Part shown: piece by piece, positions 15,607-50,024 of the stretch
How positions within the stretch are numbered: position 1 is the first letter of the stretch
How the letters are laid out: every line of letters starts with the position of its first letter
Assembly: GCF_004010195.1 (NCBI RefSeq)
Contig: NC_057760.1
Coordinates: 941,909 to 1,005,908 of the forward strand
DNA: 64,000 nucleotides
Direction of reading: 5' to 3'
From: Chiloscyllium plagiosum
Taxonomy: Eukaryota
Program-made: the position numbers and the translations under genes
The notes under the pieces: generated by a model
What the model was told of the DNA's origin: nothing
The model's database searches: none
What the model saw: only the letters and a program-made list of their open reading frames with translations

Positions 15607-17106
15607 TGTGGGAGAATTTAGCCCAATTAATCAGAGATCACAAACACACAGGTCGGACTGAGAACCGACAAGGATTTATTTAACAAACAGCGATATTGCA
15701 GAAGAGACTTGACCTCCACTGAATCAGTCACTGACAGGCTGCTCAGAAGGAACCACAGCTTCTTCCCTGAAGACAGAATACAGTGGAGTTTTCTACCCTT
15801 ACAACAATGAAGGGTGAGCTATCAGGCAACGGTGTGAGTTGCACAATAAAGAGAAATAAAGTTCATTCACTGAAGAGATTCAAGTCTCTGATAATGATGT
15901 GGAGATGCCGCTGTTAGACTGGGGTGTACAAAGTTAAAAATCACACAACAGGTTTACTTGGAAGCACTAGATTTCGGAGCGCTGATCCTTCATTGGGTGG
16001 TTGCAGAGAATAAGATTGGAAGACGCAGAATTTATAGCAAAAGATTACAGTGTGATGCAACTGGAAATTATATATCGAAAAAGACCTGGACTGTTTGTTA
16101 AGTCTCTCATTTTTTAGAATAACAATATTGGCTTCAGTTCTTTCACATGTAAGTCACAGAACTTTTTTAAAAAATTACATTCTGAAGTGAACATTAACAG
16201 TTGGTGTCATGTTGGCCCAGATAATGTATTGAAGGTGTTAGCTTCCCTGTGTGAGGCGGTCTGTGTCACAATGGTCAGACTGATTCCAATCTAAAAAAAA
16301 AACGGATTTACAGAATCTTACAAGGATTCATGCAGTTTTTGAGCAAAGTAATATGTAATTCTGCAGAATTCTTGGGCGACTGTCTGTGGAGTTTGCGCAT
16401 TCTCCCAGTGTCCGGATGCTTTGGTTTCCTCCCACAGTCCAAAGATGTGCAGGCTATGGGGATTGGCCATGCTAAATTACCCAGACTATTAGGTGCATTA
16501 GTCAGAGGCAAATGGGTCTGGGTGGGTTATTCTTCGGAGGGTCGGTGTGGACTTGTTGGGCCGAAGGGCCGTAGGGCATCTAATCTTATTCTCCATAACC
16601 ACCTGATGAAGGAGCAGCACTCCGAAAGCTTGTGCTTTCAAATAAACCTGTTGTGTGATTTTTAACCAAGTCTCTGGTGTCTGACAATGCGTTTCTTAAT
16701 TGAGTCAGGAGATTCCGATTCTTGTCTGGAGTAGGTGTTAGTGGGTTTCATCCTGTTATCAATGTGGTCGTATTGTTGAGGGGAGAAGCGAGGTACTTTT
16801 GGTGCCTCCTTGTCTGGGTACCCTTTCTAAAGGCTTGACTCCTCGTGGGAATAGCTGTACCCTAAGGACATCAGAGGTGCTGGGCTATTGTGGAGTGGGA
16901 GGCTCCTTATCAGTTAATCTGAAGAAGTATATTCTCTTGGTCTGGGGCTGGATCAGTCATGTCCTGAGGTACTTGTGATGTCTGGGACAGCTGGTTTGGC
17001 CAATTTGAGGCATTGTGGGTAGGCTTAGTGGCTAACTGCTGACATTGTGCGTTGTCTGTTTTGTGGCCATGTCATGGGGAGGCCAGAACCTGTATCTTCT
17101 CCCACA
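15607..17106 (-). mobile_element. Candidate solo LTR hosting the family B Penelope insert
   Basis: 9-bp terminal inverted repeat tgtgggaga...tctcccaca; minus-strand AATAAA near 15675; no clean TSD. Confidence 0.45.
15891..16666. mobile_element. Penelope-derived element (family B) with inverted pLTR ends and a nested SINE fragment
   Basis: Inverted termini at about 15933-16002 and 16597-16666; TSD caagtctctg at 15881-15890 and 16667-16676; hammerhead motif at 16600-16634. Confidence 0.75.
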
Positions 17107-17983
17107 CTAACAAATGTCAATAGCAGTAAAACGGACTAGTTTTTAAAAAATCCTGTCACACAGGTGTGGACTGTACTACCTGACAATGTGGTGAGGCAGA
17201 TTTAATCAAAGCGTTTGAAAGACAATTTGGCACAAGTTGCATGGGTGCAAATAGGAAAGCAGCCACAAGGTTACTTAGACCTTACAGAGTGACAGAGCAA
17301 GCTCTCACGAACTCCTGCTCCTCATTATTGTGTTCTCAGAAATGTCCGATCTCAAGCATCCCCACTATTTGCAGTCAGGATCGCCTGGATTACTGCGCGT
17401 GGTTTTGGCCCTCTTACTCAAGGTGGGGGAGTGGCAGACAGATGACGGCGGCTGCATTGGAGGCAGCTCAGAGGATGCTCACTCAATTAATTCCTGAGCT
17501 GAAGGGCTCGCCTTATGAAAAGAGACTGAGTACTTGAGGCCTACCCTCTCGAGTTTCGAAAAATGACAGTAGATCTAATTGAGGTATAGGAAACACTAAA
17601 GGGTGTTGACAGAGAGAAACAAAAAGAATGTTTCCTCACGTGGAATCAACTAGAATGAGTGGTCAGGTGTTTTAGGATAAAGGGCAGCAGATTTAAAACA
17701 GGAGGTGAGAAGACATTACTTCTCTCAAAAAGGGTTGTGTATCTGTAGAATTCGCTGCCCAAGCATGGGGTGAATGGTCGGATATTGAGTAAATTTAGGG
17801 AGGAGATAGACAGATTTTTATTTAGTATTGAGTTGAAGGGTTACACAGAGCTGGCAAATAGTCATACAGCTCAGAAACAGACCCTTCCACCCAACCAGTT
17901 CAGGCTGACCATAATCCCAAACTAAACTAGTCCCACCTGCCTGCTCCTGGCCCAAATCACTCCAAACATTTCTTATTCATGGA

Positions 17984-18141
17984 CAGAGGAACTTCGATTA
18001 TCCAAAGGACATGAATGGGGAGTATTTTGTTTGGTTCATCGATGTGGGATAACATAGTTAGCCAAGCACCGGCACCTTGCAATCTTGATCGGATAATCCG
18101 AAATTTGGTTAATCAAATGCCGGATCATCGAGGTTCCTCTG
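17984..18141. mobile_element. pogo/Tigger-like MITE
   Basis: TIRs cagaggaacttcgattatcc and ggatcatcgaggttcctctg, TA on the right flank, inserted at the TA of a CR1 tail. Confidence 0.78.
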
Positions 18142-18173
18142 TACTTATCCAAATGCCTTTTAAAGATTGTAAT

Positions 18174-18502
18174 GGGGCGGCACGGTGGCTCAGTGGTTAA
18201 CACTGCTGCCTCGCAGCACCAGGGACCTAGGTTTGATTCCTGCCTCGGGTGATGGTCTGTGCGGAGCTTGCACATTCTCCCCGTGTCTGCGAGGGTTTCC
18301 TCTGGGTGCTCTGGTTTCCTCCCACATCCCAAAAAGATGTTCAGGTCAGGGTGAATTGGCCATGCTAAATTGTCCCAGTGTTAGGTGCATTAGTCAGGGG
18401 TAAATATAGGGAAATGGGTCTGGGTGGGTTACTCTTCAGAGGGTTCGGCGTGGACTTGTTGTCTGAAGGGCCTGTTTCCACATTGTCGGAAATCTAACCT
18501 AA
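18174..18502 (+). mobile_element. HE1-like SINE
   Basis: Full head, core and tail. Confidence 0.88.
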
Positions 18503-19004
18503 TTGTACCCACATCCACCACTTCATCTGGGAGTTTGTTCCACACATGAACCACCCTGTGTTTTTAAAAAAAAAAAATGCCCCCATTCCTTTTTAAAATC
18601 TTTCTCCTCTGACCTTAAAAGTATTGTCCCTCTTGAATTCCCCTACCGGTGGGAAAAGACATCTATTTATCTTATCTATACCGCTCATAATTTATTAAAC
18701 CTCCATAATGTCGCCTCTCAATCTCCTATGTCCTGGGGGCATGTGTGAGAGAGGCAGATTGTTGTAAGGAAAGAACATGCCATATTCAGTGGCGGTGACC
18801 ATGAAATGGTCATTCATTGTTGTAAAACCCATGTGGTTCACAAACGGCCTTTAAAGGAAAGAAGTCTGCCATACTTTCCCCAGAATGGCCAGCACATGAC
18901 TCCACATCCTTAGCCATGAAGCTGGCTCTTTAATATCATCTGAAATACCGAGCCAGCCCAATCAACGTGTACCTATAGAGCTATATATGATGAACTAGTT
19001 ACTC

Positions 19005-19710
19005 ATGGGATGTTACTCATGCCCCCCCCTACACATTAACAGCACAGAGGTGGAACGAGTGAAGAGTGTCAAGCTCCTGGGAGTGGTCATCCACAACAAG
19101 CTTTCTGGGACTCTTCATGTGGACGCACTGGTTACAAAGGCCCAACAACGTCTCCTCTTCCCTCAGGCAGCTGAGGAAATTTGGCATGACGGCGAATACC
19201 CTCACCAAGTTTTATAGGTGCGTCATCGAGAGCGATCTGTCTGGATGTATCACTGCCTGGTACGGCAGCTGTACCATTCAAGATCGGAGACGGTTACAGA
19301 GAGTGGTGAGCTCGGCCCGGACAGTCACAAAGGCCAACCTCCCATCTATAGAATCCATCTCCCAGGCCCCACTGTCAAGGAAAGGCCGCCAGCATTCTCA
19401 AAGATCCACCCCACCCTGGCAATGTTTTTCCACAACCTCTACCATCGGGGAGAAACTACAGAAGCCTGAACACACGCACCAGCTGGTTTCGAAACAGCTT
19501 CTACCCTCCTGTTGTTAGAATACTGAATGGACTCACAAACTCTTCACATTCGCCCGTACCTGTGTTTTTGTTTTGCCGCTGTTTACCTATTATTTACTAA
19601 TCCATGCGACTTAACTCTGTGATCTGTCTGTGTTGCTCACAAGACAAAGTGTTTCACTGTGTCTCAGTCCACAGGACAATAAATTCAACTCAATTCCAAT
19701 TCAGTTCAAT
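19005..19710 (+). mobile_element. Rex1/Babar-like LINE 3' fragment
   Basis: KAQQRL, LRQLRKFG..FYRCVIES.LSGCITAWYGSCT..DRRRLQRVV; AATAAA followed by a degenerate (TTCAA)n tail. Older minus-strand relatives at about 22665-22975, 27385-27715 and 52660-52850. Confidence 0.85.
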
Positions 19711-19796
19711 ACCAGTTGAACCATAGCATTTCAAGCTGGTGGCTCTCCAATGGCTTCGCGAGGGACAATTAAGAACGGGCAGCGGGTTGAACCCAC

Positions 19797-20009
19797 CTTT
19801 GACATAAGGTCACAGTTCCTCTTTAGCACGTCCACTTCCTTCTGATGGCTCTGCTTGAGTTTATCTAGTGCTTTGCTGTGATTGGCAGCCTCTTCGCTGA
19901 GCGTTCCTTTCAGTGCACTCAGTTCCTGCTCCTTGCGTTGCAACAGAGCCTCCTGATGCTCAGCGTTCCTGGCCATCTCTTGCAGTTCCTTCTTGGCCGT
20001 AAGCAGCTC
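19797..20009 (-). CDS. CGN: Cingulin coding exon 10 (213 nt)
   Basis: cag|ELLTAKKELQEMARNAEHQEALLQRKEQELSALKGTLSEEAANH...CDLMSK|gtgggt. Confidence 0.92.
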
Positions 20010-20940
20010 CTGAAACAGAGGAAGATCTGGTCACCGTTTATGACATTGGATGCTGTCAGCATTCTGCATACTTTACAGCTGGTTTAACTATCCAACCATC
20101 TCTTCCCTCTGGACTTCTGCTGAACCTATTAAGGATAATTTGTTGTTAACAAATTTGGAGGCAATTTAAACTAGAGGAAAGACCATAGATAAGAAGAAAG
20201 AAATCTATTAGGAACGTTTCCTTGCAGAGATAACGGAATTCTCCCCCACAGGGAGCGGTCAGGACAAATAGCAGAGATGCACCGAAGGTGGATAAACACA
20301 GACACACATTGGGATAGAAGGACAGTGATAGGGAAAGATGAAGAGGCAGGGTCATGAATTCACTTCCCCAGAGTGTGGGGGAGGCTGGAACATTAAGTAA
20401 GTTGAAAGAGATCGACAGATTTTTAATTAGCAATGGGCTGTGAGGAGCAGGCAGGAAAGTGGAGCGGAGGCAGAAAGGAGATCAGCTGTGAATGGCTGGC
20501 GAAGCAAACTCGAGGAGCTGAATGACCCACTCCTGCTCCTTATGAAGCTCATGCAGAGCTTGAACACCGCCAAAGGCAGACAGGCCAAATGGCCTTCGAC
20601 TTTGCTGTAAATGCTCTGTAATCAAAGCTCGTATGTAGGGCAGTGCCCTGCATACCTGGGCTGCATAATTCTTCAACACTGAAATGCTTACTGGGCTTTC
20701 TCTGCCCAGTTTGAGGAGAACCTCATCAAGCCCCTCACACCGTTTCTTACTTAGTCATAGAGATGTACAGCATGGAACCAGACCCTTCAGTTCAATTCGG
20801 CCATGCGGACCAGGTATCCTAAACTCATCTGGTCCTGTTTGCCAGCATGTGGCTCCGAGCCCAATAAACTCTTGCTAATCAGCAACACATTCACTCTATC
20901 CCAGCTTGGCAGGAGGGGGCTTGGAGGGAAGATTCAAATG

Positions 20941-21152
20941 AGGAGAAAGTGAGGTCTGCAGATGCTGGAGATCAGAGCTGGAAATGTGTTGCTGGAAAAG
21001 CGCAGCAGGTCAGGCAGCANNNNNNNNNNNNNNNNNNGTCGGAAATGTGATAGGTGGAAAGAGGTCAAGGTGAGGGTGATAGGTCAGACTGGGGTGGGGG
21101 CGGAGAGTTCGGGAAGAAGATCTCAGGTTAGGAAGGCGTTGCTGAATTTGAT
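20941..21152 (-). mobile_element. pLTR-derived element (family A), contains an N gap
   Basis: 15-bp TSD gggaagattcaaatg at 20926-20940 and 21153-21167. Further family A pieces at about 25805-25942, 46325-46500, 47005-47182 and 61396-61520. Confidence 0.78.
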
Positions 21153-21273
21153 GGGAAGATTCAAATGCTCACTTGACTGAGTTCAAGGCCCACTAGCTTC
21201 AGCGTTAAGAGTGATGCCTCCCAGAGCTCCGTGGTCACATTTGGATTAGATACCTGCTGCCAGTGTAAACGCA

Positions 21274-21430
21274 CACAGGAACCTCGATTATCCGAAGGAC
21301 ACGAGCGGGGAGTATTTAGTCCTGTTAATCAAATGCTGGATAACAGTTTAGCCAAGCATTGGGACCTTGCGATCTGGCCGGATAAGCCAATATTCGGATA
21401 ATTGAATGCCGAGTAATCAAGCTCCCTCGG
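21274..21430. mobile_element. Second copy of the pogo/Tigger-like MITE
   Basis: Colinear with 17984-18141; degenerate TIRs, TA on the right flank. Confidence 0.72.
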
Positions 21431-22149
21431 TATTTGTGAGGATGTCGAAGAACAGGGGTAAATGAATTATATTGATTTCAGCCCATAATAAGATCGTAAG
21501 ACAAAGGAGCAGAAGTACACCATTTGGCCCATCGAGTCTGCTTCGCTATTCAATGCGAGAGTGGCTGAGCAAATCGTTCACAATTCCACTTTCCGGCGGT
21601 TTTCCAATAACCCGAGATTCCATCACCGATTGGAAACTCTGTCTACCCCTCAACCTCGAACGCACGATGACTGAGCCTTAACTGCTGACTGTGGTAAAGA
21701 ATTCCACAAACTCACGACCACCTGAACAAAAGAGATTCCTTGCTCTCAGTCCGAAATGGGTGACCATTTCCTCGGAGCTCTCTGGTCCTAGAGTTTCCCC
21801 ACAAGTGGGAAACAGCCTCTGCAATCTAAAATAAAAACAGGAAATGCTGCAGAGGTCTGGGTGCACTTGCGGAGAGAGAAACACAGTGAGCTTTTCAAGT
21901 CTGACGTGACTCTTCTTCAGAGCTCTCCACGTCTGCTTTGCAAAGTGCCCCAAGAATCTTGTATGTCTCGATCAGGTCTCCTCCCAATCTTCTAAACTTC
22001 ACTGGAGTACGGGCCGAACCTAGTTAACCTCCCCATGTAAGGCAGTTCCTCCACGTGAGTGTCCGTACCATCAACTCTGCATCAATCTAAAGTCCTTGCA
22101 GCCAATAAGCAATCTCAACTGAAACATAGCTATCAGGTTCTCAACATAC

Positions 22150-22291
22150 TTTTTTAAGCGACTGGATCTCTGTATTGTCCACTGAAGTCCGTTTCACATG
22201 GTCCACCTCATCCTGCATCACCGAGTAACGATCGCGCAAATCCCGCAGCTCCTCGTCGAATTCCTCTTTCTCCAGCTTGATCTGCATCAGC
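22150..22291 (-). CDS. CGN: Cingulin coding exon 9 (142 nt, phase 2 to 0)
   Basis: cag|g LMQIKLEKEEFDEELRDLRDRYSVMQDEVDHVKRTSVDNTEIQSLKK|gtatgt. Confidence 0.93.
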
Positions 22292-23215: not shown

Positions 23216-23412
23216 TGGAGACGCTGAGTGTTGGACTGGGGTGTACAAATTTAAAAAATCACACAACACCAGGTTATAGCCCAACAGGATTAATTGGAAG
23301 CACTAGCTTTCGGCGCGTTGCCTGACCACCTGACGAAGGAGCGGCGCTCCGAAAGTTACTGCTTCCAATTAAACCTGTTGGACTATAACTTGGGTGTTGT
23401 GTGACTTTTAAC
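23216..23412. mobile_element. Palindromic pLTR-derived element (family B)
   Basis: Imperfect inverted arms; CAC-CTGACGA-A-GGAGC(GGC)GCTCC-GAAA-GTTA at 23327-23358. Confidence 0.75.
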
Positions 23413-23612
23413 AAAAAAAAGTGCACAGGCTTTCTCTTGATTCCTGGTCTGAGAATGCTGCACTGCCTCAACATTCCACTTGATGGAGTCTTTGCGCAAA
23501 TCCCAGAGAGAGACATCAACCCACAATCCTCTCCCTTGCTTTTCACAAGGAGGACTGGGAACCAATTGGAACCTTCGCCCCCTCCAAACCATTGCAGTAG
23601 AACTCAATTTAC

Positions 23613-23870: not shown

Positions 23871-24176
23871 GGGAGGAAGTGAGGACTGCAGATGCTGGAG
23901 ACCAGAGCTGAAAAACGTGGCACTGGAAAAACACAGCAGGCCAGGCAGCATCCGAGGAGCAGGAGAATCGACGTTTCGGGCATAAGCCCTTATTCAGGGA
24001 TGAGGCTGGTGTGTCAAGCGGGCTGAGATAAAAGGTAGGGGGGAGGGAATTTATCTCAGCCCGCTTGGCACACCAGCCCCATCCCTGAAGGGGGGCTTAT
24101 GCCCGAAACGTCGATTCTCCTGCTCCTCGGATGCTGCCTGGCCTGCTGTGTTTTTCCGGCGCCACATTTTTCAGCT
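23871..24176. mobile_element. Palindromic pLTR-derived element (family A)
   Basis: Inverted arms at about 23906-24032 and 24050-24176; TSD gtc(g/a)caaa(g/a)taaaa at 23857-23870 and 24177-24190. Confidence 0.82.
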
Positions 24177-25574: not shown

Positions 25575-25659
25575 ACAGTTTGTTGGCAGCAATCAAAAAT
25601 CTGGTTTTTTTTTTTGGAAATAGAGTCCACCTTAAAACAGTAATAAATAAGTACATTTA

Positions 25660-25899
<240 letters not shown>

Positions 25900-25954
25900 T
25901 CAACTTTGATCTCCAGCATCTGCAGACCTCACTTTCTCCTCCAATTAAAAGTAA

Positions 25955-26800
25955 GGCCTTGGGTAGTGTTGTAGAACAGAGGCACCTAGGGGTTCAGTTC
26001 CATAATTCTTTGGAGTTTGCATCATATAACAATAAAAGGTGGTTAAGAGGGGGTTTCACACGTTTGCCTTCATTGCTCAGTCCTTTTGAGTATAGGAATT
26101 GGGACGCTATATTGAGATTGTACAGGATGTTGGCGAGGCCTCTTCTGGAGAACTGCATGCAGGTTTGGTCTCCCAGTTATAGGAAGGATATTATTAAGCT
26201 GCAGAGTGTTCAGAAGAGATTTACCAGGATGTTGCCGGGTATGGAAGGTTTGAGATATCAGGAGAGGCTGGGGCTGTTTTCTCTGGAGCGTAGGAGGTTG
26301 AGGCGTGACCTTATAGAGGTTTATAGAATCATGAGGGGGATAGATAAGGTGCCCAAAACATGGACTCTCCTGCTCCTCAGACGCTGCCTGACCTGTTGTG
26401 CTTTTTCCAGCGCCACCCTTTTCGAATGACTCTGCAGTCCTCACTTTCTCACAGTGAAGGCAAATGGCAGCTGTTTATTTTCCCCCCCAAGGGTGGGGGA
26501 TTTCAGGACAAGGGGGCATATTTTTTCCAACTAAGAGGAGAAAGATTTAAAAAAAAACGTGAGGGGCAACTTTTGTTTTGTTTCTCAGAATGTGATTCGT
26601 GTGTGGAATGAATTGCCAGAGGAAGTGGTGGATGTGGGTACAGTTACAAATGTTTAAAAGACATTTGGATAAGTACATGAAGAAGAAACTTTTGGAGGGA
26701 TATGAGCCAGGAGCAGGCATTTGGGACTAGTTTAGTCTGGGATTATGGTCGGCGTGGACTAGTCAGATTGTAGGGTCTGTTTCTGTGCTGTATGACTCTA
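25955..26800 (+). mobile_element. CR1 3' fragment interrupted by a Penelope-type piece
   Basis: LYRMLARPLLENCMQVWSP, LFSLERRRLRRDLIEVYRI. Confidence 0.85.
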
Positions 26801-30303: not shown

Positions 30304-31513
30304 CGTTGAGAGAGGATTTGTACCTCGGGCGCTCGTCGTGGTTCTGTTCGCCGAGCTGGGAATTTGTGTTGCAGACGTTTCGTCCCCTGTCTAGGTGACA
30401 TCCTCAGTGCTTGGGAGCCTCCTGTGAAGTGCTTCTGTGATGTTTCCTCCGGCATTTATAGTGGTTTGTCTCTGCCGCTTCCGGTTGTCAGTTCCAGCTG
30501 TCCGCTGCAGTGGCCGGTATATTGGGACCAGGTCGATGTGCTTGTTGATTGAATCTGTGGATGAGTGCCATGCCTCTAGGAATTCCCTGGCTGTTCTGTG
30601 TTTGGCTTGTCCTATAATAGTAGAGTTGTCCCAGTCGAATTCATGTTGCTTGTTGTCTGCGTGTGTAGCTACTAAGGATAGCTGGTCGTGTCGTTTCGTG
30701 GCTAGTTGGTGTTCATGGATGCGGATCGTTAGCGGTCTTCCTGTTTGTCCTATGTAGTGTTTTGTGCAGTCCTTGCATGGGATTTTGTACACTACATTGG
30801 TTTTGCTCATGCTGGGTATCGGGTCCTTCGTTCTGGTGAGTTGTTGTCTGAGAGTGGCTGTTGGTTTGTGCGCTGTTATAAGTCCTAGTGGTTGCAGTAG
30901 TCTGGCTGTCAGTTCAGAAATGCTCTTGATGTATGGTAGTCTGGCTAGTCCTTGGGGTTGTGGCATGTCCTCGTTCCGTTGTCTTTCCCTTAGGCATCTG
31001 GTGATGAAATTGCGGGGATATCCGTTTTTGGCGAATACATTGTATAGGTGTTCTTCTTCCTCTTTTTGCAGTTCTGGTGTACTGCAGTGTGTGGTGGCCC
31101 TTTTGAACAGTGTCTTGATGCAACTTCGTTTGTGTGTGTTGGGGTGGTTGCTTTCGTAGTTTAGGACTTGGTCTGTGTGTGTGGCTTTCCTGTATACCTT
31201 TGTGGTGAATTCTCCATTCAGTATTCTCTGTACCATCACGTCTAGGAATGGGAGTTGGTTGTCCTTTTCCCCCTCTCTAGTGAATCGGATTCCTGTGAGT
31301 GTGGCGTTGATGATCCGGTGTGTGTTCTCTATTTCTGTGTTTTTAATGATTACAAAGATGAGCCGTTGATTTGTTCATATATTTGGTTGTTGAATGTGAA
31401 GTGTGTTGTGAGGCACAGATCCAGTAGTTTGAGTATGCCGTCTTTGTTGACAGGTTCCCCGTCTTGTTGTCTGTTCTGTATGTCCAGCAGGTTGGCTATT
31501 GTTTCTCTGGCTA
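30304..31513 (-). mobile_element. Penelope-like element, 5'-truncated (RT C-terminus, GIY-YIG endonuclease, pLTR), inserted in a CR1 fragment
   Basis: ORF 30391-31239: VYRKATHTDQVLNYESNHP, NVVYKIPCKDCTKHYIGQTGR..RIHEH, REFLEAWHS. TSD gggtac(a/g)ttccac at 30291-30303 and 31514-31526. Confidence 0.93.
30371..30410 (-). ncRNA. Minimal type I hammerhead ribozyme motif in the Penelope pLTR
   Basis: GCA-CTGAGGA-T-GTCACCT(AGAC)AGGGGAC-GAAA-CG-TC-TGC: CUGANGA and GAAA cores, stem II, GCA/UGC stem I, GUC triplet. Confidence 0.75.
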
Positions 31514-33778: not shown

Positions 33779-35476
33779 CTAAGGGAAGGGGGGGGGGGGG
33801 GGGAGGAGAAAAATAAGAGAGAACACGAACTGGTTAAATAAACTAATGCATAGCGACAAGCGGATTTGGGCCCCTGAAGCCTCAAAAAGGTCAGCAATTG
33901 ATTGAACTGAAGAAGTTTCAGCTGAATAAACTCTGGAGGTGGCGACGCAGAGGTTAAAAAAAAACTAAGCGATAAAAGAAGATCAAGTAGTGAAGATGCA
34001 ACAGCATTCGTGTTAAACTGTGGCAGTAGAACAAGACAAGCATAATGGAGGGAGACAAGAGCTTCTTAAAAAAATGTATTTTTAATTTTTTCGCGCGTTA
34101 AGACTTTTCTTTTTAAATCATCTTTTATGCTGAGGGACACCTTTTTCTTGCAGAGGGTGGTTCATGTGTGGAATGAACCGCCAGAGGAAGTGGCAGATGC
34201 AGGTACAGTTACAACATTTAAAAGACATTTGGACAGGTACATGCGATAGGAAAGGCTGAGGGGGATATGGGCCAAATACAGTCAACTGGGCTTACTTTAG
34301 TTTAGGAAACATGGTCGGCATGGACGAGTTGGATCAGTGTTGTATGACTCTATGACGCTATGTTTTGACAGTAAGAAATTTGATATGTGAACGCTGTATA
34401 GCTGCAGCTACAAAAAATGTACAGAGTTTTATAAGTGAGGCCGATTGGTTTGTGGACCAAGGACCAATTATCAAAGACAAAAGGTCCGCTGCCTGCCAAA
34501 AAGTGGCTGAACAACATGGACTGTGAACAAGATGAAGGAATACATTGTCAGAGCCGAAGAGGAGAAACCAGCAGGTCTGCAGCAGCCAAGCAACGCTCCC
34601 TCTCTGGTCTCTGCAGTCAGCCACTTCAAACCGGACTAAAACCAGCATTCTTTCAAACAATACAGGTGGTGGTGAGCCATGTTCTCAAACCACTGCAACC
34701 CGTGAGGCGCAGGGACAGCCGCAACGCTACTGAAGGAGCGAGCCCTGGGACAACCCACAGCAAAGGCAATGTCCAATATAGTTCCGAGTAAGGACTGCAC
34801 AAGGCTTGGAGGGGGTGGTGCTCCCAGATGCCTGCTGGAACCTTCCACTTCATGAGGGCTAGAGGTTGCAGGTTTGGAAGGTATTACCTGAAGCGGGAGA
34901 TGGCACGGGGCAGGGTGAGATTCGGCACACAGACACACAAGATGGCCGCTGGCCCACAATATGGAGAAAGAGAGAGACGGCAGAGCAAATACATACACTA
35001 CCTAGGCCACCAGAATGCCAGCACAATGCACTCACAACCTTGTTGATTAGTTTAGGGCGAGTGGGGGAAGAGAATAGACATCAGTAACGTACACTGCCCG
35101 CCAAAGCCAACACCTTTGATAGAAATGCTAACAGCTTCAGCCTCAATACAAAGTGATAATAGCCAGGGCTGCAGTAATCGTCCTTCTCAGGAAGAGCGAT
35201 TAGCGCCCATTACTACAGCAATGGACTTTGGTGCAGACATTGAAACTGACAATAACCATTCTGAAATTAACATAGGCTGTGCTGGAACTGACAATGACTA
35301 TACTGAAACTACCAACGACTTTGCTATGATTGCCATAAACAAATCATGTTACAAAGACAATGATCTCATCACTGACCTATTGTATCACAAGATGTATAAA
35401 AGTATCTTGACATGCTCTGGGTGAAGAGAAGAATCGCAGCTGACCACCATGCTGTCTGTGTCTTTCTCTCCCCGGA

Positions 35477-37118
35477 GAGAACCTGTGCTGTACCGGGCAG
35501 GAAGATCGCTGAGAGTCTCGCACCCCTCAGGGATACAATCGCCTACGTGCAGGACAGAGGGTTGGACACCTGCCTGATCAGTCTGGACCAGGAGAATGCC
35601 TTTGACAGGATATCACACACGTATATGAGAAATGTTCTCTCCAAAATGGGCTTTGGGGAGGGAATCTGCAATTGGATCAGACTGCTCCACACCAACATTG
35701 TCAGTGCAGTCTCAATCAACGGGTGGGAATCAGATCTGGAGTCAGGCAGGGCTGCCCCCTCTCTCCTGCCTTGTTTAAGTGCTGCGTAGAGCCATTTGCC
35801 GAGTCCATCCAGGAAGGATGCGAGCCTGAGAGGGGTGACTATTCCTGGCAGCGGGGGCCTGCAGGTTAAGTCCTCCCTGTACATAGATGACGTCGCCGTT
35901 TTCTGCTCGGATCCGCTGTTCGTGCACAGACTCATGTGCACATATGACCAGTTCGAATGGGCCTCAGGGGCCAAGGTAAACCGAGGCAAGAGCGAGGCCA
36001 TGCTCTTCAGGAACTGGGCCGACCAATCCTCTATCCCCTTCACTGTCAGGACTGACCACCTGAAGGTGCTGGGTATTTGGTTCAGGGGACGTGCGCCAAG
36101 TCTTGGGAGGAGCGTATCAGCAAAGTGAGGCAGAAACTGGGCAGTTGGAAGCTATGGTCACTCTCCATCGCAGGAAAAAACCTGTCCTCGGTGTTGCGGA
36201 GGATGGGCCTGGCCTTGTTGCCGCGGAACACTCCGAGTAGTTGGACCGTTCCGTATCACCTGTCCTTCGTGGAGAAGTTTATGAAGAAAAACACCTTTGA
36301 CCACAAGTCCATCAGGAAGTGGTCAGCACGTAGTGTCCTTGAGACCCTTCGGGAAAAGGAGAGGGCGGATCCTGTCGAGCGGTTCCCTGAGCAGACTGTC
36401 AAAGCCATTTGGCAAAATGCCTCATCGCTAGAACTTTCTAACAAGCACCAAGACATGGCTTGGCTGGTGGTGAGAAGGGCTCTACCTATGCACGCCCGGA
36501 CTCTCTGCCACACCGCACGCTGCCCTCGAAGCGGCTGTGGGGGGACGAGACTGTCACACACCTCCTTCTGGAATGTGCCTATGCAGAGGAAGTCTGGAGA
36601 GGAATGCGGTGGTGTTTGTCGAGGTTCGTCCCGAGCAGCGCCGTGATGCGTGACTCCGTGCTCTACGGCCTGTTCCCCGGGACGCACACCGAGACGAACA
36701 TCAACTGTGCCTGGAGGATCATCAACTCGGTGAAGGACGCTCTCTGGGTGGTCCGAAACCTGCTGATCTTCCAGCTGAAGGAGTTGACCCTGACTGAGTG
36801 TTGCAGACTGACACATTCCAAGGTCCAGGACTACGTGTTGAGGGACGCGCTGAAGCTTGGGGCAGCTGCCGCCAAGGCGCGGTGGGGAAAGACCACGGTG
36901 TAACGTCTGCCTGCCTACAGAAGAACAGGGGGCCCATGCAGTCATTTGGGCTCTGCTGACGCCTCAGCTAATTATATGGACATAAACGTAGAGACCTGTA
37001 TATAAAAATGATAAATTCTGATCTCTGTATGTAAATGTTTATGTATATATGGCATGACCAACTGTACAGACCATCAAATTATTTTATGAATTAAGTATAT
37101 TTTTGAAATTAAAAAAAA
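35477..37118 (+). mobile_element. Tx1/L1-clade LINE 3' portion with a poly(A) tail
   Basis: LISLDQENAFDRISH, VRQGCPLSP, LYIDDV and a CPRSGC...ETVTHLLLEC zinc knuckle; A8 tail; TSD gtct(t/c)tctctccccgga at 35460-35476 and 37119-37135; frameshifted. Confidence 0.9.
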
Positions 37119-41767: not shown

Positions 41768-41979
41768 GAGGAGAAAGTGAGGTCTGCAGATGCTGGAGAT
41801 CAAAGTTGAAACTTTATTGCTGGAACAGCACAGCAGGTCAGGCAGCATCCAGGGAACAGGAGATTCGACGTTTCGGGCACAGGCCCTTCTTCAGGAAGGG
41901 CCTGTGCCCGAAACGTCGAATCTCCTGTTCCCTGGATGCTGCCTGACCTGCTGTGCTGTTCCAGCAATAAAGTTTCAAC
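41768..41979. mobile_element. Palindromic Penelope-pLTR-derived element (family A) with a hammerhead motif
   Basis: 85-bp perfect inverted arms at 41805-41889 and 41895-41979; TSD ccatcctaactcac at 41754-41767 and 41979-41992 (overlaps the arm by 1 nt); nested in a SINE. Confidence 0.85.
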
Positions 41980-42935: not shown

Positions 42936-43162
42936 TGCAGTGGTTGTAACAAGGTTGGACCTCAGAATATGAGATTCCCTGAATGGACCAGATTAACAGC
43001 CCCAATCAGGGAGCCCTGGCTGACAGATATAAACAGGAGTGTCAAGACATCCTGTTCACTCAGAGCTGGCACTGAGGGAGTTGGATCTGAGTCAAGGACT
43101 CCACCAATGTAAATAAAGGGTGACCTGGGTGACAGGATAGCGGCCTCCGTGGAGTTACTTCA
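42936..43162 (+). mobile_element. Short solo LTR (227 bp)
   Basis: TG...CA termini, 5-bp TSD gacag at 42931-42935 and 43163-43167, TATA-like gatataaa then AATAAA; interrupts an old CR1 tail. Confidence 0.75.
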
Positions 43163-43899
43163 GACAGACATTCTGTGGAATTGCCTCCCACAGAGAACAG
43201 CAGAGGCTGAGTCACTGAATACGTTAAGGCTGAATGAGACAAACTTCGGATTAACAGAGTCTGGGTTTATGGAGGGCAGGTAGCAGAACTGGAGTGGTGG
43301 TCCAAATCAGATCAGCGGCGTTCTTACCAAATACTTATCAAATGGTTGCCCAGGTGGGCACAGGGGATGCTCAGTTTGCTCTCTCTCTCTACATGCCCCT
43401 ACTCCCACCGTTACAAAAGGGGTAGTTGCCCACTTTGCACTGGCCTTCACCTGGCGTCAGTGTGGCTGCAGTTCTCTCAGGTCTGACCTCAGGTGGCCAG
43501 AGAGAGTCAAGTCAGTGAGACAGACTGACCCTCCCAGTGGATTCTCCACGTTCCCAGGCATCACCTTTTCAGTGAGACATTGACTGCTCTATCAGGGAGG
43601 CCATGGCTTTACTTCAGAGAACAAGAGAATTCTTTTTGCTGCCCCCAACCAACATTTATCCCTCAGCAGTGAAACAGAAAACAGGAGCAGGAGTGGGTCA
43701 TCCAGCCCTTTGAGCGTGCTCCGCCATTCAATACGATCATGGCTGATCATGCAACTCAGTCCCCTGCTCCTGCTTTCTCCCCCATACCCTCTGATGCCTT
43801 TGGCCCTTCACTCCCTCTTGAAAATATTCACTGTTTTGGCCTCAGGACAGGGCGGCTAGCAACCACGTCGCAGAACCTCCTGTGGATGCAGATACCTAC

Positions 43900-44001
43900 C
43901 ATTAGTTCTTCATCCAGTTTACGCTGGAGCTCTGCAATTTTCTTCTCCAAGTCACTGTTCCGAGTAGAGAGGGTCTGGAGATCAGGTGATAATTCAGCAT
44001 A
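43900..44001 (-). CDS. CGN: Cingulin coding exon 4 (102 nt), start of the coiled-coil rod
   Basis: cag|YAELSPDLQTLSTRNSDLEKKIAELQRKLDEELM|gtaggt; ELQRKLDEE motif. Confidence 0.92.
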
Positions 44002-45400
44002 CTGTGAGAATTAAAGTGAAAGCTCAGAGATAACATTTGAATTGAGAAACGGGAGGTTGAGAGGTGACCTTATAGAGGTTTGGAGAACCATGTAGAGTAT
44101 AGATAAGATTAATGGTAGGTGTTTTTTTCTCACCAGGGTGGGGCATTTCAAGGCTAAGGGGATTTTTTTTTTTTTAAAAAGTGAGGAGAGAGATTTTTAA
44201 AAACAAAATGAGTGGCAAATTCTTTACACAGAGGATGGTTTGCGTGTGGAATGAACTTCCTAAGGAAGTGGTGGATGTGGGTAAAGTTACAACATTTAAA
44301 AGACATTTGGATAAGTACATGAAGTAGAAAGGTTTGGAGGGCTATAAGCCAGGAGCAGGCAGGTGTAGTTTGGGATCACGGTTGGCATGGACTGATTGGA
44401 TCGAAGGGTCTGTTTTCATGCTGTACGATTCTATGACTCGATGACACTGCAAAGAGGAGATTAAATTTTTTAAAATATCTTTGCGATTCGAAGGACGAGG
44501 GGTTTTCAGAATGAATGTAACGTCGCCAAGTGCAGAAAATACTTTCCTGAAAGAAGGATCAGCTACACGTACCTTTGGCAATGATTACAGAGACAAAGCA
44601 GGCATCAGGACAACGGTCTGGAATTCTGCTCTTCGTACTGTGGAACCCTTAAGACCACTGGGATCAAGCTCACTGGTGCTCAGGTTTAACAACGGACAAT
44701 ACCTCAGTTGTGGGGTGACCTTATCAGAGTTTCATAAAATGATAAGGGGCATAGAGAGGGTGAACAGCCAAGGTCAGGGCTGGTAGGAGTGAGCAGGACA
44801 GCTTTAAACTAAAAACGATCAGAGTTTAAATGGAGACAACATGCAGCCCTGCAATGAAGCTGAAGGGAAGATGGATAACAAACTCCACAGTTTTAACCTT
44901 CTCATTAGGAATTGGTGTTACAATCCTGACGGTGCACAAAGACGAAGGGGCGGAGTAAGGGTCGATAAGGGCAACAAGGCATAGTTTTAAGCTGGTTGGA
45001 GGAAAGTATAGAGGGGATGTCAGAGGCGGGTTCTTTACACTGAGTTGAGAGAGCATGGAATGCGTTGCCAGCAGCAGTTGTGGAAGCAAGGTCATTGGGA
45101 CATTTAAGAGACTACTGGACATGCATATGGTCACAGACATTTGAGGGTGCATACATGAGGATCAGTGGTCAGCACAATATCGTGGGCCGAAGGGCCTGTT
45201 CTGTGCTGTACTGTTCTATGTTCTATGTTCTAAGGCCTGCTAGTAGCAACAGTTGAAAATTAATGGGAACATAGGTTTCAATCTGATACACTCTCTTGCC
45301 ATTTCTCAACAAACATTCATATGGACCATGAAGAGGTCAAACACTCAGAGATCAACTACATTCCAGGATTTAGCAAGATCAAACCGAGAGTGTCCCATAC

Positions 45401-45470
45401 CTTCATGCCTTGGAATTTGTCAAACACCAGGCTTGTTTTCTTCCTCAAGAAACTGTCACTTTCGACACTC
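45401..45470 (-). CDS. CGN: Cingulin coding exon 3 (70 nt, phase 2 to 0)
   Basis: cag|g SVESDSFLRKKTSLVFDKFQGMK|gtatgg; restores the frame between the neighbouring exons. Confidence 0.9.
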
Positions 45471-47582
45471 CTGTGGGAAAGCATCAGTATTACAATAAGC
45501 AGTTTGGCCAATTATCCTACAAGCCTTACTGTACCTTCAGCTCATCCACAAGGCCAGGTCAGCATTGAATGCCCATTGCTCACCGCCCCTTGGAAACACA
45601 GTGGTCGAGCAACCTTCCAGAATATAACTATGTGGCTCGCCAGGCTTTTTCAGGGGATAGCAATATCATCGCTGGATTACTAATCCAGAAACTCAGCTCA
45701 TGTTCTGGAGGCCAGGGTTCAAAACCCACCACGGTAAATGGTGGAATCGGAAATGAATGAAAAAAAAAAGGTCCGCAACTAAGAGATAAATGATGACCAT
45801 GAAATCAGTGTTGCTTGTCAGGAAAAACCCAAATGGTTCTCTAATAGCCTTACGGAAGGAAACTGCCCTTGCAACTCGAGACCCACAGCAATGTGGATGA
45901 GTTTTAACTGCTCTCTGGGCAATTAGGGATGGGCAATAAATGCTCACCTAGCCAGTGATGCCCACATCCCATGAATGAAAAAGTTAACAGTCAACCACGT
46001 CACAGAGTCTTGGAGTCATATGTGGACCAGGCTGGGTAAGGACAACAGATTTCCTCAAAATAGGATATTTTCAAAGAAATCTCCTTTCTGAGGATACGGG
46101 CATTGCCGGGAGGTGTAACATCTGTCGCTCATCCCTAACTGCCCTTGAATGGATTAACTTGCTATACCCTTTTCAGAGGGCTGCCAGCTCCCTTTGCCCA
46201 TGTTTGGGCCCTGTCTAAAAGGACATTAGTGAACCAGATGAGTTTTGAACAACAATCCAGTAGTTTCACGCAGTCGCCAGCTTATCCATTCGAGATTTAG
46301 AAAATTAACCAAAATCAACAAAGTGGAGAAAGTGAGGACTGCAGATGCTGGAGATCAGAATAGAGAGTGTGACGTTGGAAAAGCACAGCAGGTCAGGCAG
46401 CATCTGAGGAGAGTCGATGTTTCGGGTAATGGCCCTTCATGATGAAACACCTATTCTCCTGCTCCTTGGATGCTGCCTGACCTCCTGCTGTGCATTTCAA
46501 CAAGATCTCTAGCTGCTACTGAACTGAACTGGCCTGATTTCTGGCCCCAGCACATAACCAGTGCTTTACAATACTCACCAAAGCTAAGGATCTTCATCCA
46601 GATAAAGTTTCAACAAAGACAGAGGAGAAAGGAGGCCTTGAGAGGCAGCGGGTAGAAACCCTGCGCCAGTGAACTGAACGAATGGGTTCAAGTCCCACTC
46701 TAGAACTTGAGGCCAAGGAAGATGCATTCACAACACGGCCAAGCAAGTTGACTATCAAAATCTAAGAGGACAGCAAGGGACAGATGATGCAACTCTAAAT
46801 TCCTAAGTGCCAATGCTCTGCTAAAGTCTCAGCCACACAGTCATGTACCTCACTGGCACAGGAGTTAGAGAAGTTTGGGGAGGGGGGGGTGGAGGTTGAG
46901 AAGAAATATAACTCAGATTTAAAGCACCTTTCTGCACTGATACCTAGTGTCTGCTCTGCACAGCGATCCAAGTGCATGGACATCAGGCAAGAATGGAGAC
47001 CAAAGGGGAAAAGTATAGAGCTGGAAAAGCACAGCAGATCAGGCAGCATCCGAGGAGCAGGAGAGTCAATGTCATCAGGAATCCTGTTGAAGGGTTTATG
47101 CCCAAAATGTTGACTGTCCAGCTCCTCGGATGACCACACCTTTCGACTCTTGACTCTCCAGCATCTGTAGTTCCTCACTTTCCCCAAGCTGGGAATGCTG
47201 CCCTTCGTGCCCAGAGTAAAAGTGACGCAGCCGGTCACCTGTCGGCCAGGGAGAGCAAATGATGGAAACTGAGTCAGACGGTTCCTAGAGAGTGACTGAT
47301 TGCCTAATGCTGAGGAGAGGCCTGCACCTCACAACCTTCCAGTCTGGGCTCAGGCAAGCACTAGAGAGAGGGTGGGATGGCCAGGAACCGCAGGGATTAG
47401 TCAGGGAGTCAGAGAACCTTGGGAGAGGTAGAAGGGGAAAACGTATAATAGCGCGGTTCTGATCATGAAAGTAAAACACTGCGGATGCTGGAAATCTGAA
47501 ATAAGACCAGGAAGTGCTGGAGAAACCCCTTGCTCCAGTATATTGCCTGCCCTTGAGTTAGTCATCAACAACTGGTATGAGA

Positions 47583-48520
47583 ACACAGAATATAGAACAT
47601 AGAACAATACAGCACAGAACAGGCCCTTCGGCCCACGATGTTGTGCTGAACATTTGTCCTAGCTTAAGCACCCATCCATGTACCTATCCAATTGCCGCTT
47701 AAAGGTCACCAAAGATTCTGACTCTGCCACTCCCACAGGCAGCGCATTCCATGCCCCCACCACTCTCTGGGTAAAGAACCCACCCCGACATCTCCCCTAT
47801 ACCTTCCACCCTTCACCTCAAATTTATGTCCCCTTGTAACACTCTATTGTACCCGGGGAAAAAGTTTCTGACTGTCTACTCTATCTATGCCTCTGATCAT
47901 CTTATAAACCTCTATCAAGTCACCCCTCATCCTTCGCCATTCCAATGAGAAAAGGCCTAGCACTCTCAACCTATCCTCGTACGACCTATTCTCCATTCCA
48001 GGCAACATCCTGGTAAATCTTCTCTGCACCCTCTCCAAAGCTTCCACATCTTTCCTAAAGTGAGGCGACCAGAACTGCACACAGTACTCTAAATGTGGCC
48101 TAACCAAAGTCCTGTACAGCTGTAACATCACTTCACGACTCTTGAATTCAGTCCCTCTGCTAATGAACGCTAATACACCATAGGCCTTCTTACAAGCTCT
48201 CTCCACCTGAGTGGCAACTTTCAAAGACCTATGAACATAGACCCCAAGATCCCTTTGTTCCTCCACATCACTAAGAACCCTACCGTTAACCCTGTATTCC
48301 GCATTCTTATTTGTCTTTCCAAAATGGACAACCTCACACTTGGCAGGGTTGAACTCCATCTGCCACTCCTCGGCCCAGCTCTGCATCATATCGAAGTCCC
48401 TTTGCAGCCGACAACAGCCCTCCTCACTATCCACAACTCCACCAATCTTCCGATCATCTGCAAATTTACTGACCCATCCTTCAACTCCCTCATCCAAGTC
48501 ATTTATAAAAATTACAAACA
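47583..48520 (-). mobile_element. CR1 LINE 3' fragment, relatively young (long intact ORF)
   Basis: ORF 47844-48569: SKFADDRKIGG...LVRPHLEYCVQFWSP; (AGAACAT)n tail near 47583-47606. Confidence 0.93.
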
Positions 48521-48770
48521 GCAGCACTGCTCCCCTCAAAATCAGTCTCTCCGAGAACTTGGGTTGCACCCCATTCTCTCAGGGTCTAACCTGGAGGGTT
48601 ATCAAACACACTTATAAAAGAGTGGTGCCTAGCGTGCCAGCGTCTACCTTGCAGAGGCTGAGTGCCAACTCCCAAGACACTGGATTTAAAACCCTTAACT
48701 CCATTTCTTTCTCTGCTGAGTTCCTCCAGATTTGTCCATTACTATTGCAGTTTTGCTGTAGCACACTTAC

Positions 48771-48868
48771 CCCTCCTTCAGTATTTTGAAGAGAAGCTGC
48801 TTAGTTGGCTCTTCGCTGGCAGGAGAAAGTCCTTGCTGGTCCCTCAGAAGGTCAGGTGTGGATTTTAA
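48771..48868 (-). CDS. CGN: Cingulin coding exon 2 (98 nt, phase 0 to 2)
   Basis: cag|LKSTPDLLRDQQGLSPASEEPTKQLLFKILKEG|gtaagt; matches the cingulin TPDLLRDQQ motif. Confidence 0.93.
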
Positions 48869-49740
48869 CTGCCAAGTCAATGCGACATTGATAAGTGCTC
48901 AAGGTGACACAAGCATGCACAGGTTCACTCAGGCAGGACGCAAACTACAAAGAGTCTGAACCAGCGAACAGCTCATTCGATAACACAATATTCATAGAAC
49001 CATAGAATCCCCACACTTCCATCCCAAGTGCAAGAATTGGGAACAGGCAATGAACGGAGTTAATTTGGATAAATGTAAAGCATTGCATTTTGATAAAACA
49101 AAACAAACACCTGCATAAAGGAACAAGAGCTGTTAACCAGGAGCAATTTTTATCTCATTAATCGCTTTAGTATTTGTTCATGGTATCAGCATTCGGAGTC
49201 ATACAGTACGGAACCAGACCCTTCGGCCCAACCAGTCCGTGCCGACCGCGTTCCCAAACTAAACTAGTCCCGCCTGCCTGCACCTGGCCCATATCCCGCC
49301 AAACCTTTCCTGTTCATGAACTTATCCAAATATCTTTTAAGCGTGGTAACTGCACCCACTCAGGAAGTTCATTCTACATGCAAACCACAGTGTAAAAGAA
49401 AGTTGCCCTGCAATTCTTTTTTTTTTAAAAATCTTTCTTCTGCTCATCTTAAAAATATGTGCCCTAGTCTGGACATTCCCCACTCTAGGGAACAGTCACC
49501 TGCCATTCACCTTATCTATATGCCTCATGATTTTATAAACCTCTTGTAAGGTAACCTCTCAACCTTCTACACTCCACTGAAAGAAGTCCCAGCCTATCCT
49601 ACCCTTTGTTGCAAACACCCAACTGTTTCGAGCGTTAATGGTCACCATTACTGGCACTAGTTTTATAATCAAGACCTTTCTTTGTTTAATTTCCACCAGT
49701 CGCCACGATGGGATTTGAAGCTGCGTCCCCAGAACATTAA

Positions 49741-50024
49741 GGAGGAGACAGTGAGGGCTGCAGATGCTGGAGATCAGAGTTGACAGTGTGTTGCTGGAAA
49801 AGCAGAGCAGGTCAGGCAACATCCGAGGAGCAGGAAAATCAACGTTTCGGGCAGGAGCCCTTCATCAGGAATGAGGCTGGGAGCCTCGGGGAGGTGGAGA
49901 GATAAATGGGAGGGGGGTGGGACTGGGTGGAAGGTAGCTGGGAGTGCAATACATTTTTGGAATGGTGGGGGTAAAGGGGATAGGTTGGAGTGGAAAATAG
50001 AGCGGATAGGTGGGAAGGAAAGTT
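49741..50024 (-). mobile_element. pLTR-derived element (family A), non-inverted
   Basis: 16-bp TSD gtccccagaacattaa at 49725-49740 and 50025-50040; minus strand reads CTGATGA-A-GGGC-TCCT-GCCC-GAAACGTT. Confidence 0.82.

Follow-up and report, generated by a model that had tools for sequence, protein, structure and literature searches.

Hammerhead-bearing insertions at a shark locus: probable dead-end cDNAs of Penelope-like elements

Hammerhead motifs at the locus

The window analyzed here, a stretch of 64,000 nucleotides of Chiloscyllium plagiosum DNA, carries a host gene on its minus strand, with exons matched by an RNA contig over 23612-23764 (0 differences) and an ORF at 57078-58526. The best atlas match of this gene was 'Cingulin-like 1' (0.85), a lead only that does not separate CGN from CGNL1. 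A prior reading of the same DNA made without database searches (hereafter the sequence-only reading) had placed the minus-strand copies of the insertions described below in sense to the CGN pre-mRNA; the minus-strand host exons agree with this, and the name of the gene stands as a lead. With ~10 main arms in sense and 4 in antisense to the host gene, a small count, there was no depletion of sense copies.

Scanning the window for the pattern CUGANGA-N-stem II-GAAA located the six cores listed previously, three on the plus strand and three on the minus strand (coordinates in Table 1), all inside the ranges given by the sequence-only reading, and the stem II sequences and loops reported there matched those at the cores. 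The TTAT-loop copies at 23974-23997 (minus) and 24085-24108 (plus) carry one core change apiece. The bare core pattern was not significant (14 matches versus a shuffle mean of 8.0, with at least 14 in 5 of 100 shuffles). Upon adding a stem II of at least 3 bp, 8 intact cores were found versus a shuffle mean of 0.36 and, with at least 4 bp, 6 versus 0.16, neither number being reached in any of 200 shuffles. The pattern with a paired stem II was thus significant. An Rfam search of the window at the gathering score returned 0 matches.

The stem II of families A and B is 4-5 bp long. G10.1-C11.1 opens stem II in all six of the previously listed cores and is absent from families D and E. The stem III remnant, followed by U-H, had been described as a palindrome, which is exact in four of the six cores (three with ACGT, one with AGCT) and takes a wobble form in those at 25815 and 23330. 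Across 12 arms of the window, stem II was 94.7% paired and stem I 69% paired. The notion that stem II differs among copies yet stays paired held between families; within family A, the window offers no excess covariation, because stem II is nearly invariant and both-sided changes are at shuffle level (1 among 67 cells, counted over both stems I and II; equally high in 90 of 500 shuffles). From their sequence, we classify the motifs as minimal type I hammerheads, cleavage being a prediction. In structure predictions of monomers, the hammerhead junction was not formed; if the hammerhead acts at all, it would do so in the parent RNA, as a dimer or assisted by protein. Cleavage by dimers was reportedly the subject of a 2017 study by Lunse et al.

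Table 1 Hammerhead-bearing insertions and associated features in the window.
Feature	Position	Strand	Description
E second copy	204-281	-	
E	470-611	+	decayed hammerhead 480-506, weak stem II, weakly like A
B15891	15891-16666	both	main arm and tail on minus (15891-~16373), decayed core, ~377 nt upstream part; TSD 10 bp
B15891 middle	16374-16570		SINE-like repeat fragment between arms
B15891 inverted arm	~16579-16666	+	tail-less; intact core 16603-16627
A20941	20941-21152	-	long 5' extension; hammerhead within N gap 21020-21037; TSD 15 bp
D	21783-21920	-	~135-nt unit starting at core 21893-21920
B23211	23211-23412	both	minus-strand main arm with tail, its end within stem II; plus-strand inverted arm from 5 nt before core 23330-23354; A-rich 8-bp TSD, weak
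B23211 poly(A) signal	23368-23373		family reads show poly(A) sites, at 23385 and at 23388
A23871	23871-24176	both	TTAT loop; main arm and tail on minus, 23872-~24049
A23871 inverted arm	24050-24176	+	tail-less; cores of both arms mutated; TSD 14 bp, 2 mismatches
A25795	25795-25942	+	CTGT loop; 5' end ~20 nt upstream of intact core 25815-25838; no TSD found
A26349	26349-26453	+	stub beginning inside stem II, in LINE-like fragment; no TSD found
C	30304-31513	-	5'-truncated Poseidon-type Penelope element (by domain and linker features); hammerhead 30378-30407; TSD 13 bp, 1 mismatch
C ORF	30391-31374	-	RT C-terminus and GIY-YIG-type domain
A41768	41768-41978	both	fold-back; main arm on minus with tail, intact core 41871-41894; TSD 14 bp
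A46322	46322-46496	both	core decayed; minus-strand main arm, short inverted arm; TSD of 7 bp, not significant
A46994	46994-47186	both	decayed inverted pair, centre on stem I 5' strand; no TSD found
A49741	49741-50024	-	TCCT loop; 284 bp; reaches 156 nt upstream of core 49845-49868; TSD 16 bp
B54802	54802-54873	both	family B remnant; no TSD at boundaries tried
A61396	61396-61520	-	stub beginning within core; TSD 12 bp

Families and architecture of the insertions

The three sequence families of the sequence-only reading were recovered, but the count rose to five, D and E having been missed; likewise, the copies assigned to family A were confirmed as such and proved to be part of a set of nine insertions rather than four, one of them (A61396) lying beyond the range then covered. 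By its domain and linker features, family C is assigned to the Poseidon-type, endonuclease-bearing Penelope-like elements (PLEs). It matched proteins combining an RT with a GIY-YIG-type domain (112 matches; 58% to P0004 over 286 aa), displays the endonuclease domain motif C-x2-C-x3-YIGQT, and has a 75-aa linker with 1 Cys and no Zn-finger linker, a Penelope/Poseidon feature. Pfam gave no match on the fragment present in the window. The translated pLTR of family C matches residues 1-61 of the Chiloscyllium punctatum protein P0072 at 75%. Its terminal repeat encodes the N-terminus of the ORF, the pLTR hammerhead overlaps that N-terminus, and an ATG sits at the start of stem II.

Families A and B, as the sequence-only reading had it, are devoid of an ORF in the window. 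No RT/GIY-YIG ORF was linked to either of them in window, protein and metagenome searches, and their upstream parts were matched by no PLE protein compared. An open frame in the A repeat had suggested an ORF N-terminus, a candidate left unsupported because peptide searches yielded no RT protein, returning either nothing or one PDZ gene model containing the repeat. Family A patterns found 0 matches in viral contigs and prokaryote genomes.

When 14 elements were compared with 150 random controls, the TSDs of six (A20941, A41768, A49741, A61396, B15891 and C) exceeded all controls and those of three (A23871, B23211 and A46322) fell in the upper tail, while none was found at the boundaries tried for the remaining five (A25795, A26349, A46994, B54802 and D); a wide search alone gave D a candidate 11-bp TSD. 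The portrayal of A and B as short insertions flanked by TSDs was right.

The 3' ends of A and B are fixed at two sites 37-42 nt apart. Inverted arms are devoid of the 37-42 nt tail and stop at the inner site in A41768, A23871, B15891 and B23211. Both families thereby show the layout of Penelope insertions, namely a tail at one end, an inverted truncated pLTR and a TSD; as described in the available parts of two earlier reports (PMC3846280; PMC8557442), PLE insertions carry an inverted truncated pLTR and a 30-40 bp tail at one end. In A41768, the inverted arm is identical to the main arm over 82 of 82 compared columns and the hammerhead motif is buried in a 41-bp hairpin. The two arms of B15891 have a 20-nt deletion in common; the inverted one begins 24 nt upstream of the core, the main one running 377 nt upstream. 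No head-to-tail tandem occurs among the 9 A and 3 B insertions of the window, and the units end, not at the predicted cut, but upstream of the core on one side and ~90 nt downstream of that cut on the other.

The 5' ends of family A are nested, the innermost lying inside stem II and the farthest 156 nt upstream; five of nine in the window lie within ~10 nt of the core and four extend at least 20 nt. Upstream parts are homologous to one another (73% over 56 nt and, in a weak match, 67% across 49 nt), and the CTGT-loop and TTAT-loop subfamilies each include a short and a longer copy.

Ends of the units in sequencing reads

In two DNA runs, most of the listed A ends fell on an initiator-like motif (TCA+1TTCC) ~4 nt upstream of the core, and the dominant A unit was ~130 nt long. 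Summed contig depth was 8.6-12.5 million across the A hammerhead but 0.56 million immediately upstream of it, a drop that is inflated because the upstream part of the reference is subfamily-specific; contig depth gives no copy number. Among the six rows of loose ends listed per DNA run, 1386 and 841 contigs ended at 23991 and 23998, respectively, in X1, and 1485 and 919 in X12. These contigs continue only through the 5' strand of stem I, after which agreement falls to 0.34-0.39; 1142 loose-end rows and 128 joints lie outside the listings. Among the joints listed, opposite-strand joints linking 23906-23908 to 23985-23998 were seen in 1-3 contigs per run, their short side measuring 31-37 nt in X1 and 22-31 nt in X12 and X15; they fit a tail-only arm fused to an inverted arm, the outcome expected if one RNA underwent twin priming.

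In one RNA run, B transcripts were polyadenylated after the hammerhead and before the tail, and polyadenylated B RNAs reached upstream of the hammerhead. No clear initiator motif was recognized in B. No peak of molecule ends was listed, the 3'-primed RNA library being unsuited to a 30-nt cut product.

Origin of the stubs

Of the two origins offered by the sequence-only reading, a ribozyme-processed system is unsupported, since the elements do not end at the predicted cut site and the copies are not in tandem. Truncated ends of full elements are favoured by the nested A 5' ends, the homologous upstream parts and the signature of tail plus inverted arm; random truncation of all copies was not borne out, given the dominant ~130-nt unit. 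The stubs are likely dead-end pLTR cDNAs of several autonomous PLEs, probably made when reverse transcription begins at an internal site and reaches the 5' end of the RNA, where it runs off. A, B, D and E would be the ends of further PLE families, the mRNA of which would start at the stem I edge of the hammerhead, as the initiator-like motif in A suggests, so that reverse transcription begun in the 5' repeat would run off after ~130 nt. The front edge of the ribozyme motif, where many stubs begin, is the likely start of the copied RNA. Priming by the second target strand at the inner site would yield the inverted arm, and longer copies would stem from read-through or jumped templates, randomly truncated. 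The stubs would have been copied from uncut RNA and, missing the stretch past the tail required by PAc (see below), would not move again. Against this account, no ORF is tied to A or B, four of nine A insertions in the window extend at least 20 nt, B has no clear initiator, five of 14 elements yielded no TSD at the boundaries tried, and a short non-autonomous master would give the same 130-nt class. A different RNA end is possible given D. virilis, where transcription begins ~120 nt upstream and helix I is the end point of an intron.

A further step, doubtful though conceivable, is that PLEs multiply much as a retrovirus would if joined to target priming, with a terminally redundant mRNA running from the front edge of one hammerhead to a poly(A) site behind the next, ahead of the tail. 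As mRNAs ending before the tail (seen for B RNAs) would oblige reverse transcription to start in the 5' repeat, copying of the ORF would depend on a jump of the ~130-nt strong-stop cDNA to the 3' repeat; stubs would be jumps that failed, and the palindrome-bearing hammerhead may serve to pair two RNA ends or two RNAs, not to cut. Our literature search surfaced no strong-stop or template-jump model for PLEs, most subscription journals lying outside its coverage.

The dominant 130-nt class in two DNA runs and the missing ORF are also what would be expected if A and B were fixed-length ~130-nt non-autonomous elements with an internal promoter of their own, using PLE protein in trans like SINEs or monomeric retrozymes. 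Precedents in the available parts of the literature include PLE derivatives (Chlamys MRC1, PMC8557442), vertebrate retrozymes with monomer copies, and pLTR sequences able to work in trans (PMC3846280). Yet the nested longer copies share subfamily features with the short ones, head-to-tail tandems are missing from the 9 A and 3 B insertions, the stubs do not include the RNA beyond the tail that PAc requires, and polyadenylated B RNAs reach upstream of the hammerhead and end before the tail. Truncated ends fitting better, we regard a non-autonomous master as unlikely, the dominant ~130-nt unit preserving some probability for it. It is likewise unlikely that the stubs are ordinary 5' truncations whose peak reflects either RT stalling or folding back at a structured, protein-bound hammerhead or else a splice junction, rather than a transcription start. 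The ends of several window copies do fall within the core or stem II (26349, 46322, 61396 and the B23211 main arm), a 3-bp snap-back fits the centre of A41768, self-priming is a proposed origin of PLE inverted junctions (PMC3846280, in the part available), and the D. virilis intron end would suit a splice junction. However, stalling would be expected at the 3' side of the structure, not just beyond its 5' edge, where the peak is located; in A, the closest upstream AG is ~8 nt from the core, not 4; and snap-back explains neither the stop of inverted arms at the inner RT site nor a B15891 arm starting 24 nt upstream opposite a 377-nt main arm. Stalling or splicing would leave the identity of the PLE stubs the same, only the mechanism differing. 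Excision of units by the hammerhead as linear or circular monomers, then reverse-transcribed as in non-LTR retrozymes, is very improbable and, for these copies, largely refuted: intact cores with palindromic stem III and the existence of vertebrate retrozymes processed in this way speak for it, but units neither end at the cut nor form tandems, the A41768 motif lies within its hairpin, and monomer folds do not form the junction.

PLE hammerheads and truncated inverted insertions have already been published and are ordinary as catalogue entries. Read as run-off cDNAs, the stubs may record in vivo start and stop points of PLE reverse transcription, and they bear on how the partial tandems and inverted repeats of PLEs are built and on the role of the hammerhead. 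Testable predictions follow from the favoured 5' end at the edge of the hammerhead and from a poly(A) site that precedes the RT starts. B copies may also provide poly(A) signals to host transcripts.

Comparison with known systems

No shark PLE surfaced in a literature search that left most subscription journals outside its coverage. Hammerhead patterns accompanied 16 of the 118 metagenome loci with a PLE ORF that were listed, 14 of the 16 on the same strand, and one locus (L021) showed a partial tandem with the pattern; these were hammerheads of other animals, none of the 118 loci matching A, B or C at the DNA level. Published minimal hammerheads, in the part of their description available, likewise have a type I core with an extra base before stem II, G10.1-C11.1, a palindromic 15.2-16.2 and a short stem I, and occur as several families per genome, mostly as single motifs linked to truncated PLEs; the 4-5 bp stem II of A and B sets the present copies apart, and that part does not name sharks among the hosts.

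The available sections on endonuclease-bearing PLE units (PMC3846280; PMC8557442) describe the same inverted arm, one-end tail (37-42 nt here), TSD (10-16 bp here) and strong 5' truncation, whereas our insertions consist mostly of the hammerhead-to-tail module alone, with a preferred 5' end. Non-LTR retrozymes, reported in one chondrichthyan (available parts of PMC7229834 and bioRxiv 10.64898/2026.07.22.740005), are also non-coding, with a type I hammerhead, and derived from or related to PLE pLTRs, but are head-to-tail hammerhead units processed to circles, in contrast to the single or inverted, TSD-flanked copies found here.

According to the available portion of the study of PAc, the Anolis Poseidon (Frangieh et al. 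2024, PMC11167929), its protein cuts both target strands, reverse transcription starts at two internal sites bounding the tail, and RNA beyond the tail is needed. RNA 5' run-off, a pLTR poly(A) site and template jumps are not discussed in that portion. PAc differs from A and B, which have no linked ORF, and resembles them in the two 3' end sites; with family C it shares an RT followed by a GIY-YIG-type domain, a pLTR hammerhead, an ATG where stem II begins and a tail inside the ORF N-terminus.

Hammerhead motifs and the families that carry them

The bare hammerhead pattern matched the window 14 times against 8.0 expected, thus barely exceeding chance. When a paired stem II was demanded, 8 matches were obtained vs. 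0.36 expected, a number reached by none of 200 dinucleotide shuffles, and these included all six intact cores listed in an earlier sequence-only reading. The two TTAT-loop cores described there as mutated each carry one change. The three hammerhead families proposed in the same reading are indeed present, but two more, D and E, also occur in the window, bringing the insertions to nine for family A, three for B, one each for C and D, and two for E. Stem II is near-invariant in family A, with variation confined to the loop, and no excess of covariation was detected among 12 arms; differing stem II sequences are a property of separate families. The minimal motifs of the window gave no Rfam hit at the gathering score, and the junction fold was not formed by hammerhead monomers in energy models. 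In A41768 (named, like the other insertions, for its family and start), the motif is buried within a long hairpin. According to PMC4209133, minimal type I hammerheads are inactive as monomers and display low activity as dimers; in bioRxiv 10.64898/2026.07.22.740005, one of nine Xenopus retrozyme dimers cleaved.

Family C is a 5′-truncated Penelope/Poseidon-type element of 1.2 kb which belongs by its features to the Penelope-like elements (PLEs). It matches proteins that combine RT with a GIY-YIG-type domain, and its terminal repeat codes for the ORF N-terminus, the ATG lying at the start of stem II. Across 35% of its length, the family C protein shares 83% identity with one from Chiloscyllium punctatum, in keeping with a shark origin of the window. 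Among the metagenome loci listed with a PLE ORF, the same hammerhead pattern was found in 16 of 118 (13 of 67 for loci of at least 2 kb), and one contig, L021, is a partial tandem of two PLE ORFs with a hammerhead in between. No ORF tied to family A or B was found in the searches made; both families show the structural features of PLEs, and this architecture suggests that they are PLE families. In a public PDZ-protein gene model, P0114, residues 286–312 are the translation of a family A repeat that was probably taken for an exon in error.

Anatomy of the insertions

For the most part, the elements are intronic, within a cingulin-family gene (CGN or CGNL1) on the minus strand. The earlier description of families A and B as short insertions flanked by target-site duplications (TSDs) is broadly borne out. 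TSDs of 10–16 bp scored above all 150 random controls in 6 of the 14 elements tested from families A to D and were borderline in three; five had none at the boundaries tried. A wider search returned a candidate 11-bp TSD for family D. Family A main arms (the copies with a tail) share one 3′ end site, while their 5′ ends are nested (see table) and their upstream parts are homologous to one another. In A41768, A23871, B15891 and B23211, a second, inverted arm ends 37–42 nt before the end of the main arm. Since both B15891 arms have a 20-nt deletion missing from other B copies, and the A41768 arms are identical at 82/82 columns, the two arms of each of these insertions derive from one template or source.

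Features of the window
Feature	Position	Strand	Remarks
Family E core, weak	480–506	+	pattern with paired stem II
Tandem arrays	2921–3707		37-nt and 53-nt units; 53-nt unit like part of an abundant SINE-like repeat
Purine-rich intronic tandem array	5030–8771		~3.7 kb; extreme strand skew; 12-nt unit, 209 copies at 98%, degrading to 24–29-nt variants
End of B15891 main arm	16357–16370		perfect 14-bp palindrome
SINE-like repeat fragment	16374–16570		at B15891 inversion junction; short common motif joins inverted arm
Family A insertion	20941		5′ end past an N gap
Family D core	21893–21920	-	pattern with paired stem II
Used poly(A) signal, family B repeat	23368–23388		between hammerhead and tail
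Family A insertion	23871		5′ end ~52 nt upstream of core
Family A insertion	25795		5′ end ~20 nt upstream of core
Family A copies at a LINE-like fragment	25942–26600		two copies, which flank or interrupt the fragment; neither with TSD
Family A insertion	26349		5′ end inside stem II
LINE-like ORF2 fragments	35400–36963	+	cysteine motif at C-terminus
Family A insertions	41768, 46994		5′ end 3–4 nt upstream of core
Family A insertions	46322, 61396		5′ end inside core
Family A insertion	49741		5′ end ~156 nt upstream of core
Putative transposase fragment	51262–51684	-	open frame, 140 aa; impression from translation

The commonest family A unit in DNA reads

Reads from 4 of 24 listed runs were aligned to a 781-base stretch that holds an arm each of families A and B and a single host exon. 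Two DNA runs, from organisms A and B, yielded ~80,000 and ~77,000 aligned contigs, indicating that the hammerhead families are very abundant, although depth does not give copy number. Contig depth was ~15-fold lower just upstream of the A core, where the reference is subfamily-specific. Among the six loose-end rows listed per DNA run, those at positions 23991 and 23998 comprised 1386 and 841 contigs in run X1, and 1485 and 919 in run X12; agreement in these contigs was lost beyond the 5′ strand of stem I. On the basis of this fall in depth and these ends, the commonest A unit is ~130 nt long and begins ~4 nt before the core. This start differs from the predicted cut, ~30 nt farther downstream, and falls on TCA+1TTCC, which matches the initiator consensus.

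Joints were also recovered between a short tail piece (31–37 nt in X1) and an inverted arm starting at the hammerhead edge (1–3 contigs per run and joint), a pattern that twin priming on one RNA would yield. An organism B contig covers 23393–23895 with 20 differences, and the two insertions, one each of families A and B, are thus common to both organisms and old. In both DNA runs, joints from 23380–23412 to 23872–23878 placed a family B repeat directly onto an A tail end (1–13 contigs per listed position), which may reflect chance nesting at such abundance.

A poly(A) site in family B

RNA evidence came from one raw single-cell poly(A) run of one sample, of which ~2% of reads were examined. 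Poly(A) began at 23385 on 353 reads and at 23388 on 463, 12–15 nt past a hexamer (23368–23373; AATAAA in most reads) and ahead of a GU-rich tract. First mates favored the strand expected of sense B RNA by 7.6 to 1. RNA depth was unbroken over the B core, 312 reads reaching into B upstream sequence, and no molecule-end peak was seen among those listed in this library, which is unsuited to showing a 30-nt cut product. The polyadenylated RNAs, whose 3′ ends lie past the hammerhead and short of the tail, could be mRNAs of the element or else host RNAs ending within a B copy; B copies could terminate host transcripts.

Proposed mechanism and comparison with known systems

Two fixed 3′ sites and a preferred 5′ end, together with TSDs and inverted arms, characterize the insertions, which are very probably stubs, short copies of PLE ends. 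In the model we propose, the PLE protein would bind an mRNA beyond the tail, cut both target strands and prime RT at an outer and an inner site. Priming inside the 5′ repeat would let RT run off the RNA start after ~130 nt, a step which we consider somewhat more likely than not if the insertions are stubs. Microhomology would then join two cDNAs into inverted units, longer copies would arise from read-through or jumped templates, and the stubs would be dead ends whose hammerheads were copied from uncut RNA.

The hammerhead insertions are genuine and largely ordinary: motifs of this class, insertions with this layout and PLE derivatives that are non-autonomous have all been published. Searches of a literature set with few subscription journals surfaced no PLE model combining a poly(A) site with a strong-stop cDNA; novelty, if any, lies in this idea, which is built on one RNA sample and inference.

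The copies in the window lack the tandem arrangement that is a criterion for non-LTR retrozymes in PMC7229834. In Drosophila virilis, the pLTR (the PLE terminal repeat) has an internal promoter whose start lies 46 bp ahead of a 75-bp intron, and hence away from the hammerhead edge (PMC2377424). In the anole element, a Poseidon-type PLE studied in vitro, RT starts at two internal positions that bound the tail, and each strand of the target is cut and then extended; RNA is required as far as ORF +172, and insertion persists with a mutant hammerhead (PMC11167929). The layout of a tail plus an inverted pLTR described in PMC3846280 and PMC8557442 is the same in A41768, A23871, B15891 and B23211, and the insertions of the window behave like PLE insertion.
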